Sequence record: PZ445454.1
Origin: a phage
Direction: 5' to 3' (one strand)
Length of the DNA: 64,000 nt
The position numbers and the translations under genes are program-made. The notes beneath the pieces were generated by a model. That model was not told the DNA's origin and searched no databases. It saw only the letters and a program-made list of their open reading frames with translations. This document shows positions 11,259-25,211 of the stretch, in pieces (within the stretch, counting starts at the first letter, position 1; every line of letters starts with the position of its first letter).

Positions 11259-19274
<8,016 letters not shown>

Positions 19275-19276
19275 TA

Positions 19277-20425
19277 ATGGCAGTAGGTGAAATTCAAATT
19301 AGTGCCTTGCCTCAAGCAGCCTTACCGATTGACCTTAGTGATATCTTCCATCTTAAGCAGGGTATTGAGGATAAGAGATGTACTCTTGAGCAACTACTTG
19401 CTCCACACTCAAGCCTAAGAAATAACCCTCATGGTGTTACTAAGACACAAATTGGTTTAGATAATGTTATTAATGCTCTTCAGTTAGTTGCTGCAAATAA
19501 CTTATCAGATATTGTTAATGTAGCTGAGGCAAGAAAAAATCTACAGATTATGTCTTCAGAAGAGGTTAATAGCCTTATTCAACAGCATATTAATGACAAG
19601 AGCAACCCACACAATACAACTAAGGCGCAGGTTGGTTTAAGTAATGTCCAGAACTGGACAACATCTAACCTTTATAATGAAGATGCAGATAAGTATGCTA
19701 CAGCAAGAGCAGTAAATAACTTGTACAAGGCTGTTCAGGCTTCTTATCCAGTAGGTACTATCCATCTCTCTATGAATCCTGCAAACCCCTCTACATATTT
19801 AATTTGTGGAGGTACTTGGGAGTTAGTCTCAAAAGGGAGAGCACTTGTAGGTTATGATAGTGATTCTAGGCCAGTTGGTTCAACGTTTGGTTCACAGACT
19901 ACTGCACTGACGGTTAATAACATCCCTGCACATACCCACTCAGTGTACGTCACTGGTGGTGGTCACACTCATGGTGCAACGGCCTCTATCAGTGCTTTTG
20001 ATTATGGCACTAAAGGTACTACAACGTTTGACTACGGAACAAAGACCGTATCTACTTATGACTATGGCAACAGAACAACAAGTGCTGCTGGCTTAACACA
20101 AACAACATTCATTAACCGTGGCTATGCTGATGGTGGCTGGAGAGGTTTATCGGTTGAGGGGGCAAGCTATGACCCAAGAGCTACATTGACAACAGCTAAC
20201 AACCACACTCACTCTGTAGCAATTGGTGCACATAATCACACGGTTGGTATTGGTGCTCACAGCCATACTGTTGCAATTGGTTCCCACAACCACTCAGCAA
20301 CAGTAACAGTAACCGGAGCAGGTGAGCATTCACACTCTGGTACAACTGGTACAACTGGTTCTGGTCAAGCATTTAGTGTTGAACAGCCATCCTTCGTACT
20401 GTATGTATGGCAGAGAACAGCTTAA
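19277..20425 (+). CDS. tail fiber protein (short paralog) with His-x-His repeat tip
   Basis: N-terminal NPHxxTKxQxGLxNV repeats; C-terminal GAHNHTVGIGAHSHTVAIGSHNHS repeats; C-terminus GSGQAFSV...WQRTA shared with next gene. Confidence 0.65.
   Translation: MAVGEIQISALPQAALPIDLSDIFHLKQGIEDKRCTLEQLLAPHSSLRNNPHGVTKTQIGLDNVINALQLVAANNLSDIVNVAEARKNLQIMSSEEVNSLIQQHINDKSNPHNTTKAQVGLSNVQNWTTSNLYNEDADKYATARAVNNLYKAVQASYPVGTIHLSMNPANPSTYLICGGTWELVSKGRALVGYDSDSRPVGSTFGSQTTALTVNNIPAHTHSVYVTGGGHTHGATASISAFDYGTKGTTTFDYGTKTVSTYDYGNRTTSAAGLTQTTFINRGYADGGWRGLSVEGASYDPRATLTTANNHTHSVAIGAHNHTVGIGAHSHTVAIGSHNHSATVTVTGAGEHSHSGTTGTTGSGQAFSVEQPSFVLYVWQRTA
19920..20340 (+). repeat. His-x-His (HTHS/HNHT/HSHT) coding repeats in tail fiber tip
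   Basis: repeated cac-ac(t/c)-cac codon triplets encoding HxH, spaced by GIGA/VAIG. Confidence 0.6.
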
Positions 20426-20435
20426 TTTCTTTACA

Positions 20436-20455
20436 GGGGCTTTATAGCCCCTTTT
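20436..20455 (+). terminator. rho-independent terminator between tail fiber genes
   Basis: hairpin ggggct/agcccc then TTTT. Confidence 0.5.
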
Positions 20456-20471
20456 AAGAGGAAAATTTATA

Positions 20472-22826
20472 ATGGCAGATTACAAGTTGAGTGAATTAAA
20501 CTCAATCGACACAATCCGTTCAGACGACCTTCTTCATGTCAGGGTTAAAAAGAGACCTGAAATGCTAGGTGATGAAGACCGTCGAATGACCTATCAAGAC
20601 TTCTTAGCATCTTTTAAACTTGAGAGATTTGTTCAGATTGCTGGCAGCACTATGACGGGTGACTTAGGAATTGTCAAGTTACTTTATGGTGGTAAGGCAG
20701 TCTTTGACCCTACAGGTTCTTCTGAGATTAATATTGGGGATGCTTTAAAGGCTTTTAAAATCAACGCAAATGGTCTTAAGTTAACTGTTGCAGATGCTTC
20801 AAGGTCAGCAACTGTTTATCATACTCTGAATAAACCAAGTCCTAATGAACTTGGCATGAGAACTAATGAAGAGAATGATGCAAGATATGCAAGATTAGCT
20901 GTAAATAACACCTTTAGAGCCACTCAGACTATTGTTGCTGACAATGAAGGGTTAATTATTAAGAATTTGACACAAAATCAACCTTTGTATATCCGTGGCG
21001 TGGACACTGCGAATGTATCTAGGTGGTGGTTAGGTGTAGGTGGCATGGACTCTACTGATGTATCCTTAAACAATAGCTTCTCTGGGACACAAATTACTCT
21101 TTCGAGGTCAGTGATTACGGCTAACAAGAATCTCCAAATCACTGGTCAAGTTCAGCCTTCTGACTTCTCTAACTTAGATGCTAGATACTTTACTCAGACA
21201 GCAGCTAATCAGAGATTTGCACAGTTAACTGCTAATAATACTTTTAGTGGTTTAAATACATTCAATAATGCTGTTAACATCATCTCTAATTCTGCTGCTA
21301 TCATGCTGCAAAATAAATCTACAAATGAATCTTTATTCATCCTAGCAAAAGATAGTGAAAATAATAACTTGTGGTATCTTGGTAAGGGTAGTGCAAACTA
21401 TAGTACCACATTACACGATTATAAGGGCAACACCTCGATGGTCTTAGACTCGTCTGGTGCTACATTCAGCAAGACTGTAAAAATCACTGGACAGGTTCAG
21501 CCTTCAGATTGGGCTAACATTGACGCTAGATACATCCCAGCAGGAACTTTGAGTAATCTCGCTAAGCTAAGTGATGCAAACACTTTCAGGTCTGCACAGA
21601 TTATTAATCAGAATGGCTCATTATTACAGCTAAAGAATACTACACAAGATGGAGAGCTATACTTGGCTGGTTATAATGTTGATGGTGTTAGAAGGTGGTA
21701 CATTGGGAATGGGGAAGCATCCAACCCAGAAAGACTTATTATCCATAACAGCAAAACTGCAACTACGATTTATATGATAGATGATTTCTTGCTGACTAAA
21801 ACTGTTAGAATCATTGGTCAAGTTCAGCCTTCTGATTGGACTAACTTAGATGCTAGATACTACGTTCAATCTTCAGCAGATGCGAAGTACATCTGGTCAG
21901 CAGTCAGGGAGACAGTAAGAGCAGAGGATGGTGGTGTAGCTTGGAATAAACCTTCAGGAATCTATCTTGAGATGCTTAAGGGTGGTGGGTCAAACCGTTT
22001 AGTCTCGCACATGTTCGTTAATACGGGAGCATCAACACCTGCTGCACAATTGATGTTTGATTATAGAAATGGTGGGATGTGGTACAGAACAGCCAGAGAC
22101 GCACATGGTTTTGAGGAGGATTGGTCTAAGATTTACACAGAGGCTCAGAAACCAACCCCTTCAGAGATTGGTGCATACACTAAAACTGAAACTGACCAGA
22201 AGATTGCACAGGCAGTAAGTGACTCTACAGACCTTAATAAAATCTATCCAGTGGGTATTGTGACATGGTTTAACAGTAATGTTGACCCTAATACAGCACT
22301 GCCTGGTCTAACTTGGACGTACCTCAACAATGGTGTTGGTAGAACTATCAGAATTGCAGCAGCAAATGGTTCAGATGTTGCTACAACTGGTGGTTCGGAC
22401 TCTGTGACGTTAGCTGTTGGGAACTTGCCTTCACACACGCACAGTTTTTCTGCTACCACTTCATCTTTTGACTACGGAACAAAAAGCACTAACACGACTG
22501 GTTCTCACGCTCACTCTGTAAGTGGCTCTACTTCATCTGCTGGTCACCACAACCACGCTATCTCGTGGATTGGTCAGAACTCTACACACTATTCTGGTGG
22601 TGGTGGTGGTAGAATCGGTACAGGTCCGGGTTACACTGATGGGGGTGGTGACCACGCGCATTCAATTAGTGGTACTGCCGCCTATGCTGGTGACCATGCT
22701 CACAGTGTTGGTATTGGTGCTCACAGCCATACAGTTAGCGGTAACACTGGTGGTACAGGTTCTGGTTCAGCATTTAGTGTTACTAACCAGTTCTACAAGT
22801 TAATGGCTTGGGTGAGAACTGCTTAA
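20472..22826 (+). CDS. tail fiber protein (long paralog) with triplicated internal motif and His-x-His repeat tip
   Basis: three copies of I(T/I)GQVQPSD(F/W)xN(L/I)DARY; C-terminal HTHS, HAHS, HSHT repeats and GSGSAFSV...WVRTA ending. Confidence 0.7.
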   Translation: MADYKLSELNSIDTIRSDDLLHVRVKKRPEMLGDEDRRMTYQDFLASFKLERFVQIAGSTMTGDLGIVKLLYGGKAVFDPTGSSEINIGDALKAFKINANGLKLTVADASRSATVYHTLNKPSPNELGMRTNEENDARYARLAVNNTFRATQTIVADNEGLIIKNLTQNQPLYIRGVDTANVSRWWLGVGGMDSTDVSLNNSFSGTQITLSRSVITANKNLQITGQVQPSDFSNLDARYFTQTAANQRFAQLTANNTFSGLNTFNNAVNIISNSAAIMLQNKSTNESLFILAKDSENNNLWYLGKGSANYSTTLHDYKGNTSMVLDSSGATFSKTVKITGQVQPSDWANIDARYIPAGTLSNLAKLSDANTFRSAQIINQNGSLLQLKNTTQDGELYLAGYNVDGVRRWYIGNGEASNPERLIIHNSKTATTIYMIDDFLLTKTVRIIGQVQPSDWTNLDARYYVQSSADAKYIWSAVRETVRAEDGGVAWNKPSGIYLEMLKGGGSNRLVSHMFVNTGASTPAAQLMFDYRNGGMWYRTARDAHGFEEDWSKIYTEAQKPTPSEIGAYTKTETDQKIAQAVSDSTDLNKIYPVGIVTWFNSNVDPNTALPGLTWTYLNNGVGRTIRIAAANGSDVATTGGSDSVTLAVGNLPSHTHSFSATTSSFDYGTKSTNTTGSHAHSVSGSTSSAGHHNHAISWIGQNSTHYSGGGGGRIGTGPGYTDGGGDHAHSISGTAAYAGDHAHSVGIGAHSHTVSGNTGGTGSGSAFSVTNQFYKLMAWVRTA
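21130..21870 (+). repeat. three dispersed direct repeats inside long tail fiber gene
   Basis: near-identical about 47-nt segments (ggtcaagttcagccttctga...ttagatgctagatac) at about 21140 and 21812, diverged copy at about 21484. Confidence 0.6.
22425..22745 (+). repeat. His-x-His coding repeats in long tail fiber tip
   Basis: LPSHTHSF, GSHAHSV, GHHNHAI, GDHAHSI, GDHAHSVGIGAHSHTV. Confidence 0.6.
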
Positions 22827-22833
22827 TCCCTTG

Positions 22834-22862
22834 TTGACTGATTGTTAAGATGGTGTTAATAT
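22834..22862 (+). promoter_or_regulatory. sigma70-like promoter candidate TTGACT-N17-TAATAT overlapped by 9-bp inverted repeat
   Basis: TTGACT then 17 nt then TAATAT; inverted repeat aagatggtg (about 22847) / caccatctt (about 22879) spans the -10 and start region. Confidence 0.4.
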
Positions 22863-22905
22863 TCTTTATGGGTATTCTCACCATCTTGGCTGATGAGGTG
22901 ATTAA

Positions 22906-23103
22906 ATGCCTACAATCCTAGCAATTCTTCTAAAAAATCTAGGTAGCTTCTTCTGGAAACTCATTTTATCCCTTCTAAGTGAATACATGATTGAGAAAGT
23001 GTTCTTTAGGCTTGCAAGATATCTTGCGAGTAAAACAGACACACCTATTGATGATGAGTTCGTAGATAACTTAGAAAAAGCTTTTAAGGGGGAGAATAAA
23101 TGA
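22906..23103 (+). CDS. small hydrophobic protein (membrane; holin or fiber-associated candidate)
   Basis: 65 aa; hydrophobic N-terminus ILAILLKNLGSFFWKLILSLL. Confidence 0.4.
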   Translation: MPTILAILLKNLGSFFWKLILSLLSEYMIEKVFFRLARYLASKTDTPIDDEFVDNLEKAFKGENK

Positions 23104-23471
23104 AGTGGCTAGAGGAAGCTTTTAAAAATAATATTGGTGCAATTGTAGTTGGTATTTTTAGTGTTATTGGGATGTATACCACCATGCAAGTCTCGGATGG
23201 TAAGCAAGAAGTGTCTATCACAACAAAGTTACAGCAGTTAGATAATTATTCCAAAAGTAATTATTCAGCTATTCGTGATTTACAGTCTGATATGAGGCTG
23301 CTTCAGCTAGGGATGGAGAACCAGAAAGTCCAGTTAGAGAATGTTAAGGGTGAGAACGCAAAACTTACTAAGACTCTTGATAAATTCTCTGATAGTGTGA
23401 ACAATCTGGCTCAATCAGTATCAGCCCTCCAAGCTATTACTGAAAAGAACACAAAGAATACTGAAAAGTAA
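23100..23471 (+). CDS. membrane-anchored coiled-coil protein
   Basis: 123 aa; N-terminal TM IGAIVVGIFSVIGMY then heptad-like QLDN...LQLGMENQ region. Confidence 0.4.
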   Translation: MKWLEEAFKNNIGAIVVGIFSVIGMYTTMQVSDGKQEVSITTKLQQLDNYSKSNYSAIRDLQSDMRLLQLGMENQKVQLENVKGENAKLTKTLDKFSDSVNNLAQSVSALQAITEKNTKNTEK

Positions 23472-23477
23472 AGTTTA

Positions 23478-23506
23478 AGGCTCCTTTTTACGGGAGCCTT
23501 TTTTGT
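23478..23506. terminator. terminator hairpin between convergent blocks
   Basis: aaggctcc / ggagcctt stem followed by TTTTTTGTTTT on plus strand. Confidence 0.6.
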
Positions 23507-23507
23507 T

Positions 23508-24407
23508 TTATTTACCTACTGACAAAGGTGCTTCAATCTTCCCTGCATGTTGATAGTTGCTAATACCACCAATAAAGTCACTTGCAGTAAGATGTTTCAG
23601 GTCACTTAAAGTATTAAGTTGTAAACCAATCTCAAAAGTAGGTGCATGGAACTCTTCATTGCTCATCAGTTCATAAACCTGCTTCATATGGTTCTGATAA
23701 ATCTGAGTATCCCCAAAGACACCTATCAAATATCGTGGAGTGTATCCAGTCATCTTACAAAGAACTTCCAGAATAAAACCATAAGACGCAATGTTAAAGG
23801 GAAGTCCTAGAAAGGTGTCTACAGAACGCTGATACCATTGTAAGTCAACTTCACCTTCATTAGTGATATAAATCTGAAACAGAACATGACAAGGTGCTAA
23901 AGCCATTGAGTTTGCTGCAATATCTGCTGCATTCCAAGCATTAACTAGCATGTAACGGTCTGTGATATCACCCTTCATCTTTGTTACTAAGGTCTCTAAC
24001 TGGTCTACAACACAACCATTATGACCTTCAAAGTTTCTCCACTGAACTCCGTAGATTCTTCCACCTGCATCTTCTAACCAATCCTGTTCAGAAGAATAAT
24101 TAGAGCTTAACCAGCGTTTAAAATCATCTGACCAGATTGTCCAGCGTTCTCCGTCATTTTCACCCCAAGTACGGTAACGAAGTTCACCAAGCTTATTCTC
24201 ACCGTTCAGGAACCATAAAGCTTCCCCAATAACTTGCCGTGTAAACACCTGTTTAGATGTTAAGAGCGGGAAACCAGTTCGCATATCAAAACGAAACTGA
24301 GGTGGAGCAAATGCAGAGATAACATCTCCAGTTCGTGTAGTACGCAGTTCGCCAACAGATAAAACATGGTTCAGGATATTTTTGTAACTTGTATCTGCTT
24401 GTGACAT
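23508..24407 (-). CDS. thyA: thymidylate synthase (or related dUMP/dCMP pyrimidine C5-modifying enzyme)
   Basis: ThyA-like signatures: catalytic-Cys region LAPCHVLFQIY, and YQRSVDTFLGLPFNIASY. Confidence 0.7.
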   Translation of the reverse strand: MSQADTSYKNILNHVLSVGELRTTRTGDVISAFAPPQFRFDMRTGFPLLTSKQVFTRQVIGEALWFLNGENKLGELRYRTWGENDGERWTIWSDDFKRWLSSNYSSEQDWLEDAGGRIYGVQWRNFEGHNGCVVDQLETLVTKMKGDITDRYMLVNAWNAADIAANSMALAPCHVLFQIYITNEGEVDLQWYQRSVDTFLGLPFNIASYGFILEVLCKMTGYTPRYLIGVFGDTQIYQNHMKQVYELMSNEEFHAPTFEIGLQLNTLSDLKHLTASDFIGGISNYQHAGKIEAPLSVGK

Positions 24408-24408
24408 A

Positions 24409-24954
24409 TCAAAAGTGTCCTTTTACTTGTGGAACATAAATTTCAAAAGTTGCTTTACCATCCTCTGATGGTTTTGACTGTACCTTTGTAAACACACGGT
24501 TATCATACAGCTTCTCAAAGAAGTTTTCAAAAGGTAAATGCACGGTGGCCTCTTCAGTAACTTTATGGAAAACAGTATGGAACACCACACTAGCATACGG
24601 TAAAGCATTGACAAGGATACCTGCACCACCAATTACAAAGACATCTTCATCAATAGAGCTATCAAGATACTTCAAAAATGCTCCAAATGACTCTTTACTG
24701 GCTTTAGCATACATTACATCATCTTTGCCAAAGTCTATGCCTAAGTATGGTACAGAATTTGTTAAGATGAGGTTTGCACGTTCTGGTAAAGGTTTACTAC
24801 CCAGAGTCTTGAAAGTTTCATTACCCATCACTACTAAGTTATTTTTAGTGAGTCTCTTAAACTCTTGCATGTCCTGTTTATGTCGAGGCCACGGCATACC
24901 AGTTGGAGTACCAAACTCACCATTTTCACCACTTGCAAAGATTAATTTAATCAT
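24409..24954 (-). CDS. folA: dihydrofolate reductase
   Basis: 181 aa; N-terminal IFASGENGEFGTPTGMPW DHFR signature; adjacent to thyA. Confidence 0.7.
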   Translation of the reverse strand: MIKLIFASGENGEFGTPTGMPWPRHKQDMQEFKRLTKNNLVVMGNETFKTLGSKPLPERANLILTNSVPYLGIDFGKDDVMYAKASKESFGAFLKYLDSSIDEDVFVIGGAGILVNALPYASVVFHTVFHKVTEEATVHLPFENFFEKLYDNRVFTKVQSKPSEDGKATFEIYVPQVKGHF

Positions 24955-25211
24955 TTTGTAAATCCTTTCTTAATAAACCAGTTGATAACATTCTTCACAG
25001 CTTTATTGCTATGGTAGATTAAGTGTGGTGTAGGTTGGTATGAACCATAAGCCCAGAATGATAGATGCTCACCACAACCAACACATGTTGTACTCTCTTC
25101 AGCTATATGACCATTAACAATCACATGAACTTCACCTTGTAAGTCTGTACATCCACAATGTGGGCATCGGATAGGTGTTCCATCAGACTCATAGCAGTGT
25201 TCAATTTTCAT
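24951..25211 (-). CDS. small zinc-ribbon protein
   Basis: 86 aa; CPHCGC ... CVGCG cysteine pairs. Confidence 0.45.
   Translation of the reverse strand: MKIEHCYESDGTPIRCPHCGCTDLQGEVHVIVNGHIAEESTTCVGCGEHLSFWAYGSYQPTPHLIYHSNKAVKNVINWFIKKGFTK

Follow-up and report, generated by a model that had tools for sequence, protein, structure and literature searches.

Can a short motif that recurs within a phage tail fiber gene let recombination change the length of the fiber, or do the repeats serve another purpose? This question is raised by the long tail fiber (LTF) gene in the window analyzed here, a stretch of 64,000 nucleotides (nt) of phage DNA (sequence record PZ445454.1). The gene encodes the motif I(T/I)GQVQPSD(F/W)xN(L/I)DARY three times, at amino acids (aa) 223-239, 338-354 and 447-463. 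The original prediction, made from the letters of the window, held that these copies are substrates for recombination that can lengthen or shorten the fiber shaft. We conclude, with a probability of roughly 0.8, that the motif instead serves as a conserved joint linking three shaft domains of the PF20744 family arranged in tandem, and that the cores of these domains are swapped as cassettes at the necks that join them while their number stays fixed.

The identity of the gene was established by several comparisons. The open reading frame of 2355 nt matches the PHROGs profile phrog_4277 ("tail fiber protein") along residues 1-784 (780 profile positions; E = 0). A megablast search with the gene returned 228 phage records, almost all of them Felixounavirus/Ounavirinae phages of Escherichia, Salmonella and Shigella. 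Its translation also carries HHxH at H692/H693/H695, the residue numbers published for gp27, the LTF of phage Bas63 (PMC12609058). These results together show that it was correctly named a long tail fiber gene; judged by its sequence, it is the Felixounavirus LTF gene of the Bas63 gp27 type.

A repeat search of the gene yielded a single 63-nt family (21126-21188, 21471-21533 and 21798-21860) whose copies lie 345 and 327 nt apart, which bears out the predicted triplication at intervals of about 330 to 345 bp. The other copies of this family are 78-83% identical to the middle copy. By BLASTN, copies 1 and 3 agree at 48/53 nt (90.6%), copies 2 and 3 at 82.5% and copies 1 and 2 at 78%. When copies 1 and 3 were compared through a 45-nt pattern, all 38 of the 38 specified bases were equal, as were 41/45 bases overall, and 100 shuffles gave 0 chance matches. 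The likeness that had been claimed over about 47 nt is therefore real. However, "almost identical" is slightly generous as a feature of this window, since the consensus DNA of 57 phages already has junctions 1 and 3 nearly alike and only junction 2 deviating (NIDSRY); gene conversion specific to the window was rejected as the main cause of the likeness on the same ground. A weak signal of concerted evolution was detected, junctions 1 and 3 being 0.830 identical within genomes and 0.812 between genomes (permutation p = 0.0002, a value inflated by the kinship of the phages), and some synonymous states are shared by the three copies of a genome (TCA/TCA/TCA in 10 genomes, for instance). Upstream of the three copies lies a degenerate fourth junction, KPSPNELGMRTNEENDARY, at aa 121-139. 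Periodic similarity beyond the motif, which the original prediction had proposed to look for, is present in the protein and missing from the DNA. The cores between the motifs share 26-37% aa identity among units (z = 10-14 against shuffles), and each of the three units alone matches PF20744, while BLASTN found no DNA-level repetition within the LTF gene outside the motif.

Pfam analysis assigned the repeats to PF20744 (gp37_trimer), with three stretches and 200.6 bits for the whole protein (E = 3.3e-60; gathering threshold, 21.7 bits). Taken singly, the units scored 96.2 bits (aa 159-240), 55.2 bits (aa 277-355) and 56.3 bits (aa 383-464), and each stretch ends in the motif. An AlphaFold2 monomer model of aa 120-480 (mean pLDDT, 73.8), built on an alignment of mostly fragmentary proteins from the homologue search with the repeat region, shows three five-strand cores (pLDDT, 85-94), and the short helical turns between them fall at ...SD(F/W)xN(L/I)DARY.... 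Each PF20744 shaft domain thus ends, at its C terminus, in the motif, with which the neck leading to the following domain begins; in the Bas63 structure, the neck is described as a "triple alpha-helix and turn" (PMC12609058). The LTF has the architecture of the Bas63 type, with five shaft domains, the presumed first of which would lie at about aa 60-120; three PF20744 units and a PF12604 domain (aa 468-555; PDB 8ju3, E = 2e-22) are followed by a T4 gp37-like HxH needle (Gp10_C match; T4 gp37 tip 2xgf, E = 5e-17).

The best PDB matches found by Foldseek were to the pyramid domain of T7 gp17 (4A0U/4A0T; probability, 1.00; 64-67 columns), on which the PF20744 units superpose at a root-mean-square deviation (rmsd) of 1.5-1.6 Å, and the LTF also matches 4A0T in sequence (E = 4e-4). 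The units are thus predicted to adopt a fold like that of the gp17 pyramid. The gp17 fragment, however, matched one unit of the three-unit model and adjoins the fiber tip, whereas the LTF carries three tandem copies in its shaft, at 22-23% identity to gp17. A further likeness, stated for the Bas63 LTF (PMC12609058), is to the T4 gp34 rod (5NXH/4UXG), in which small beta-structured trimeric domains alternate with short helical necks. The window LTF has no sequence match to gp34, and Foldseek with the monomer model scored weakly (E = 0.02-0.6; probability, 0.08-0.25; rmsd of about 20 Å over about 400 columns), probably due to poor superposition of a flexible three-domain rod modeled as a monomer.

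Conservation along the gene was assessed with 57 non-identical LTF genes from IMG/VR, metagenomes and GenBank, and 22 orthologues were used for a profile of conservation to the window; a scan of genome contigs found no relatives. The gene is a mosaic. Mean pairwise nt identity is about 87-89% in the N-terminus (aa 1-140, with conservation of 0.77-0.99; 88.6% for aa 1-145), in the collar segment (aa 560-670) and in the C-terminus (aa 741-784). It is 80-84% in the three islands that hold the motif (conservation, about 0.78-0.94) but falls to 53-56% in the cores between the islands (conservation, 0.25-0.5), to 46% in the fifth domain and to 54% in the tip. Alignments within very divergent cores are approximate, though lengths and the anchor residues W, G and Y are conserved. 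Two-state segmentation of 1596 gene pairs placed almost all changes of identity state, from high to low or from low to high, at island edges (aa 131-150, 221-240, 251-270, 331-340, 351-370, 441-470, 551-560, 661-690 and 741-750).

The cores occur as discrete alleles that have been reassorted. With an allele defined as a cluster at 85% nt identity, the 57 genes hold 15, 18 and 25 alleles at positions 1, 2 and 3, in 49 distinct three-core combinations, and 19 and 14 alleles of the fifth domain and tip. Quartets of genes showing all four combinations of two alleles at each module were found for 9/10 module pairs. Adjoining cores have discordant histories: in 96 gene pairs, core 1 reaches 88% identity or more while core 2 does not exceed 62%, and the opposite holds in 41 pairs. 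Discordance of this kind was seen in every pair of variable modules, with hundreds of high/low pairs, although kinship among the 57 genes makes such pair counts exceed the number of independent events. The gene of the window is itself composite, its core 3 being 94% identical in nt to that of phage CL1 (L041) and 42-50% identical to most others, its core 2 being 81% identical to that of phage P219 and its fifth domain being 96% identical to that of L040; core 1 is at most 54% identical, in register, to that of CL1 or any other phage. We also noted that the fifth domain (21874-22137) and the tip (22483-22692) behave like cassettes, with an assortment that is independent of that of the three PF20744 cores.

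Synonymous divergence (pS) between different core alleles is saturated, at 0.70-0.74; the backbone shows 0.24-0.29 and the islands show 0.38-0.46. The identity distributions of the cores are bimodal, and allele classes are common to distant isolates at 90-100% identity. These comparisons suggest that cores are replaced by old alleles from a shared pool and are not merely mutated.

Cassettes have also changed position within the gene. In an all-against-all comparison of the cores, three families were present at both position 1 and position 3, and no family joined position 2 with another position. For example, nt 432-721 of the gene of Alf5 (KX377933) and nt 1101-1390 of that of P219 (PV659053) are 94.1% identical over 290 nt. 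The orthologues L004 and L016 show the same cross-position match; in their alignment, the likeness runs from the NTF codons in the left neck to just past DARY in the right motif, and the flanks are unrelated. The boundaries of the moved cassettes thus lie, by comparison, at the NTF and DARY elements. In the LTF gene of an 89-kb metagenome contig (L034; ERZ781270 NODE-3), nt 436-716 equal nt 1096-1376 at 99.6% over 281 nt. The doubling of cassette and motif may reflect either a recent conversion event within the gene, involving positions 1 and 3, or two co-occurring strains merged into a chimera during assembly.

The window provides a further case. L010 and L007 carry, at position 3, cassettes that are 79-80% identical in nt to core 1 of the window, over 267 nt and with the same boundaries. 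A tblastn search with core 1 matched 139 of 50,697 phage records (best, KhF2, with 81.6% aa identity); in all 13 of the 13 records for which the position was computed, the match lay about 248 codons downstream of aa 120, which corresponds to position 3. The window phage thus holds at position 1 a cassette of the position-3 type, apparently a transposed one. The F/W polymorphism of the motif is common to junctions 1 and 3 and is absent at junction 2. That the intragenic repeats are recombination substrates, as had been proposed, agrees with these data: the cassettes between them have been exchanged between phages, and at least three times between positions 1 and 3.

The number of units, on the other hand, does not vary. 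The repeat region (aa 136 to 463 in the window) is 321-328 aa long in 57/57 non-identical orthologues. By tblastn against GenBank, a single stretch accounts for at least 80% of the region in 249/252 matching phage records, and among the 60 matches listed, every one with full coverage spans 1038-1080 nt. Nor does the cryo-electron microscopy study of Bas63 describe a repeat number that varies within the genus (PMC12609058). Overall differences in LTF length (777-856 aa) arise in the tip and the fifth domain, outside the repeats. The comparison of repeat number among related phages that the original prediction had called for thus gave a constant, in the orthologues as in GenBank, and the predicted lengthening or shortening of the shaft is not observed, no length variant having been found in the orthologues, the full-coverage GenBank matches listed or the Bas63 paper. 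Recombination here appears to replace cassettes and to conserve their number. Exchange between positions 1 and 3 with a constant unit number suggests a strict constraint on fiber length; the Bas63 LTF docks along the sheath (PMC12609058).

We propose that the motif and the following DARY...NTF segment would form the neck between successive shaft domains and that this neck would act as a universal connector, so that any core could fit between two necks. In co-infection, homologous recombination would resolve at the necks, since only there does the middle of the gene retain similarity in DNA among relatives (about 80-90%), and would replace whole cores of about 75-80 aa. The core alleles are numerous, deeply diverged and in near-free assortment. 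Since the three necks are also like one another (78-91% over 53-64 nt), recombination would occasionally occur out of register, and a cassette from NTF through the DARY of the motif would be copied between positions 3 and 1, in either direction, with the domain number kept. Products with a changed unit number presumably arise and would then be lost to selection on fiber length.

The features that make such exchange possible could equally serve unequal crossing-over between the three motif copies, in which shaft units are added or removed and fiber length varies among phages or within populations. The copies have the likeness given above and lie in direct orientation, out-of-register exchange between them demonstrably occurs, and there is a precedent in T4, in which duplications formed between short repeated motifs of gp37 give rise to host-range mutants (Tetart 1996, cited in PMC3157838). 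The constant length of the region in the 57 orthologues and in the full-coverage GenBank matches listed, the invariable repeat number across the genus (PMC12609058) and the location of gene-length differences in the fifth domain and tip all speak against it, and we consider it unlikely and disfavored as a source of fixed natural variants. Quite unlikely too is a purely structural explanation, in which the motif is conserved as a trimeric neck, the cores tolerate missense mutations and recombination has no particular role. Missense tolerance is the first hypothesis put forward in the Bas63 paper (PMC12609058), and part of this explanation holds. The motif lies within a curated protein domain and its synonymous sites are not unusually conserved, so that protein structure suffices to account for its conservation. 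For the cores, however, drift predicts a synonymous divergence (dS) close to that of the backbone and a divergence that tracks the backbone, and the pS values reported above are far apart. Together with the bimodal identities and the discordant histories of adjoining cores, this saturation argues against tolerated missense mutations, as do near-identical cores at different positions in different phages.

Sharply bounded hypervariable blocks in a protein that interacts with the host also bring to mind targeted hypermutation, by a diversity-generating retroelement or another mutator, with the motif as the border of the target. No template-like second copy of a core was found in positions 19000-25000 of the window, and a reverse transcriptase was not searched for. 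Saturated synonymous change and discrete allele classes (90-100%) in distant isolates fit the inheritance and exchange of alleles, and hypermutation is highly improbable. Several points nonetheless weigh against the motif being the joint at which cores are swapped. Protein structure by itself accounts for the conservation of the necks. The pS of the islands is above that of the backbone, with no sign of DNA-level selection on the motif as a recombination site, and such selection was set aside as unsupported. At the left edge of the out-of-register segments, only about 12 nt are shared (AAATACTTTTAA), a short stretch for homologous recombination of the ordinary kind. The switch histogram shows the edges of conserved blocks, not crossovers, so that crossovers are placed no finer than within an island, and the 57 genes are related, so that pair counts overstate independent events. 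The structure rests on a monomer model of a trimeric fiber, and L034 is a metagenome assembly that could be chimeric.

Table 1. Features of the LTF gene in the window, with the evidence for each
Feature	Positions	Strand	Evidence or remarks
LTF gene, 784 aa	20472..22826	+	Open reading frame; phrog_4277; megablast; HHxH
Conserved N-terminal part (baseplate-binding and first shaft domain), aa 1-120	20472..20831	+	Conservation 0.77-0.99; pS 0.24
Junction 0, degenerate joint KPSPNELGMRTNEENDARYARLAVNNTF, aa 121-148	20832..20915	+	Unit alignment; high-to-low switches at aa 131-150
Cassette 1, core of PF20744 unit 1, aa 149-222; position-3-type	20916..21137	+	Sequence matches
Motif copy 1 ITGQVQPSDFSNLDARY, aa 223-239	21138..21188	+	Opens island J1
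Island J1, aa 221-258	21132-21245	+	Conservation 0.78-0.94; switches low-to-high at aa 221-240, high-to-low at aa 251-270
Cassette 2, core of PF20744 unit 2, aa 259-337	21246..21482	+	54% mean pairwise nt identity; 18 alleles
Motif copy 2 ITGQVQPSDWANIDARY, aa 338-354	21483..21533	+	Opens island J2
Island J2, from aa 338 to about aa 372	Ends at 21587	+	Low-to-high switches number 1047 at aa 331-340
Cassette 3, core of PF20744 unit 3, aa 373-446	21588..21809	+	25 alleles
Motif copy 3 IIGQVQPSDWTNLDARY, aa 447-463, island J3	21810..21860	+	Switches at aa 441-470
Fifth shaft domain, PF12604 gp37_C, Mu S-like, aa 468-555	21874..22137	+	Pfam; PDB 8ju3; hypervariable
Conserved collar and needle start, aa 560-670, opening with joint-like KPTPSEIGAYTKTETDQKI	22150..22482	+	Conservation 0.83-0.99; Gp10_C
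Variable tip module, needle and head with HxH motifs, aa 671-740	22483..22692	+	2xgf; 54% nt identity; 14 alleles
Conserved C-terminal strand of needle and collar, aa 741-784	22693..22826	+	Conservation 0.82-0.99

The gene order around the LTF gene agrees with the CL1 annotation. Upstream lie baseplate genes (Baseplate_J, DUF2612-like) and then a gene for a 382-aa short tail fiber (19277-20425); downstream lie a holin-like gene and, on the opposite strand, genes for thymidylate synthase and dihydrofolate reductase. In their 3' parts, which encode the needle (HxH), the short and long fiber genes are 81-88% identical in nt over patches that lie as direct pairs 2.4 kb apart (20224-20272/22688-22736, 20339-20380/22740-22781 and 20018-20043/22458-22483). 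These common patches could permit exchange of tips between the two genes. The short fiber also has a repeated neck-type motif of its own, NPHGVTKTQIGLDNVIN / NPHNTTKAQVGLSNVQN, at about aa 47-135. An inverted repeat (22847-22887; 15-nt arms, 11-nt spacer) lies 20 nt past the LTF stop codon, and in phage ASO1B a terminator is annotated soon after the end of the LTF gene. A scan for terminators and promoters around the LTF gene gave nothing above shuffle expectation, and a consensus terminator was not found there. Felixounavirus LTF sequence also occurs in the Campylobacter phage records MG065668 (A126) and MG065664 (A132) and in two proteins, P0006 and P0017, named Staphylococcus hyicus; these entries are probably mislabeled or contaminated.

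The nearest known system is Bas63 (JohannRWettstein) itself. In the cryo-electron microscopy work on its gp27 and on the Sf14 homologue, shaft repeats 2-5 are highly variable and the repeat number is constant, as here (PMC12609058). That paper offers three explanations for the variability of the shaft (mutational tolerance, host recognition and escape from defenses), and the word "recombination" has 0 occurrences in its text. What the present analysis adds is allelic replacement of cassettes at the necks and exchange between positions. The principle of motif-mediated swapping has been described for T-even phages, in which the His boxes of gp37 and the glycine-rich motifs of gp38 mediate swapping (Trojet 2011, PMC3157838, and Tetart 1998 as cited there). 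There, short conserved motifs flank hypervariable segments, and exchange in or near the motifs gives rise to chimeric fibers; in the LTF gene, likewise, motifs flank hypervariable segments, and the segments assort independently. The T-even cases concern the receptor-binding tip or adhesin and were shown by crosses, whereas those in the LTF concern whole shaft domains of about 75-80 aa with another fold, on comparative evidence only. Unlike the T-even gp37 and gp38 segments, LTF cassettes also change position within the gene. The tandem duplications by which T4 gp37 broadens its host range (Tetart 1996, as cited in PMC3157838) resemble the LTF case in that direct repeats are the recombination substrates, but they alter copy number, and the copy number in the Felixounavirus LTF was invariant in all sequences examined.

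Domain architecture, shaft variability and the principle of motif-mediated swapping were known, and swapping in a fiber shaft and positional permutation appear to be new here. No description of cassette reassortment or positional permutation in a Felixounavirus fiber shaft was found in the literature searched, an absence that is not proof.

These results bear on the question left open by the Bas63 paper, namely what causes the variability of the Felixounavirus LTF shaft domains. The finding that old, discrete core alleles are exchanged at the necks points to sustained diversifying selection on the shaft, by whatever agent would keep so many core alleles in circulation. Host recognition and evasion of defenses are the two remaining hypotheses, and both are now directly testable. 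The Felixounavirus group is used in diagnostics and biocontrol of Salmonella and E. coli, and the NTF and GQVQPSD..DARY elements are natural splice points for the engineering of chimeric fibers. A more speculative extension, possible but doubtful at present, is a combinatorial specificity array made up of the three PF20744 domains together with the fifth domain and tip, with each core an independently selected functional module. If so, the cores would be, for example, lateral glycan-binding or defense-evading surfaces. Universal necks would let phages permute these modules among genomes and positions, the window phage being a natural positional permutation, and the shaft, not only the tip, would encode host range or escape from immunity.

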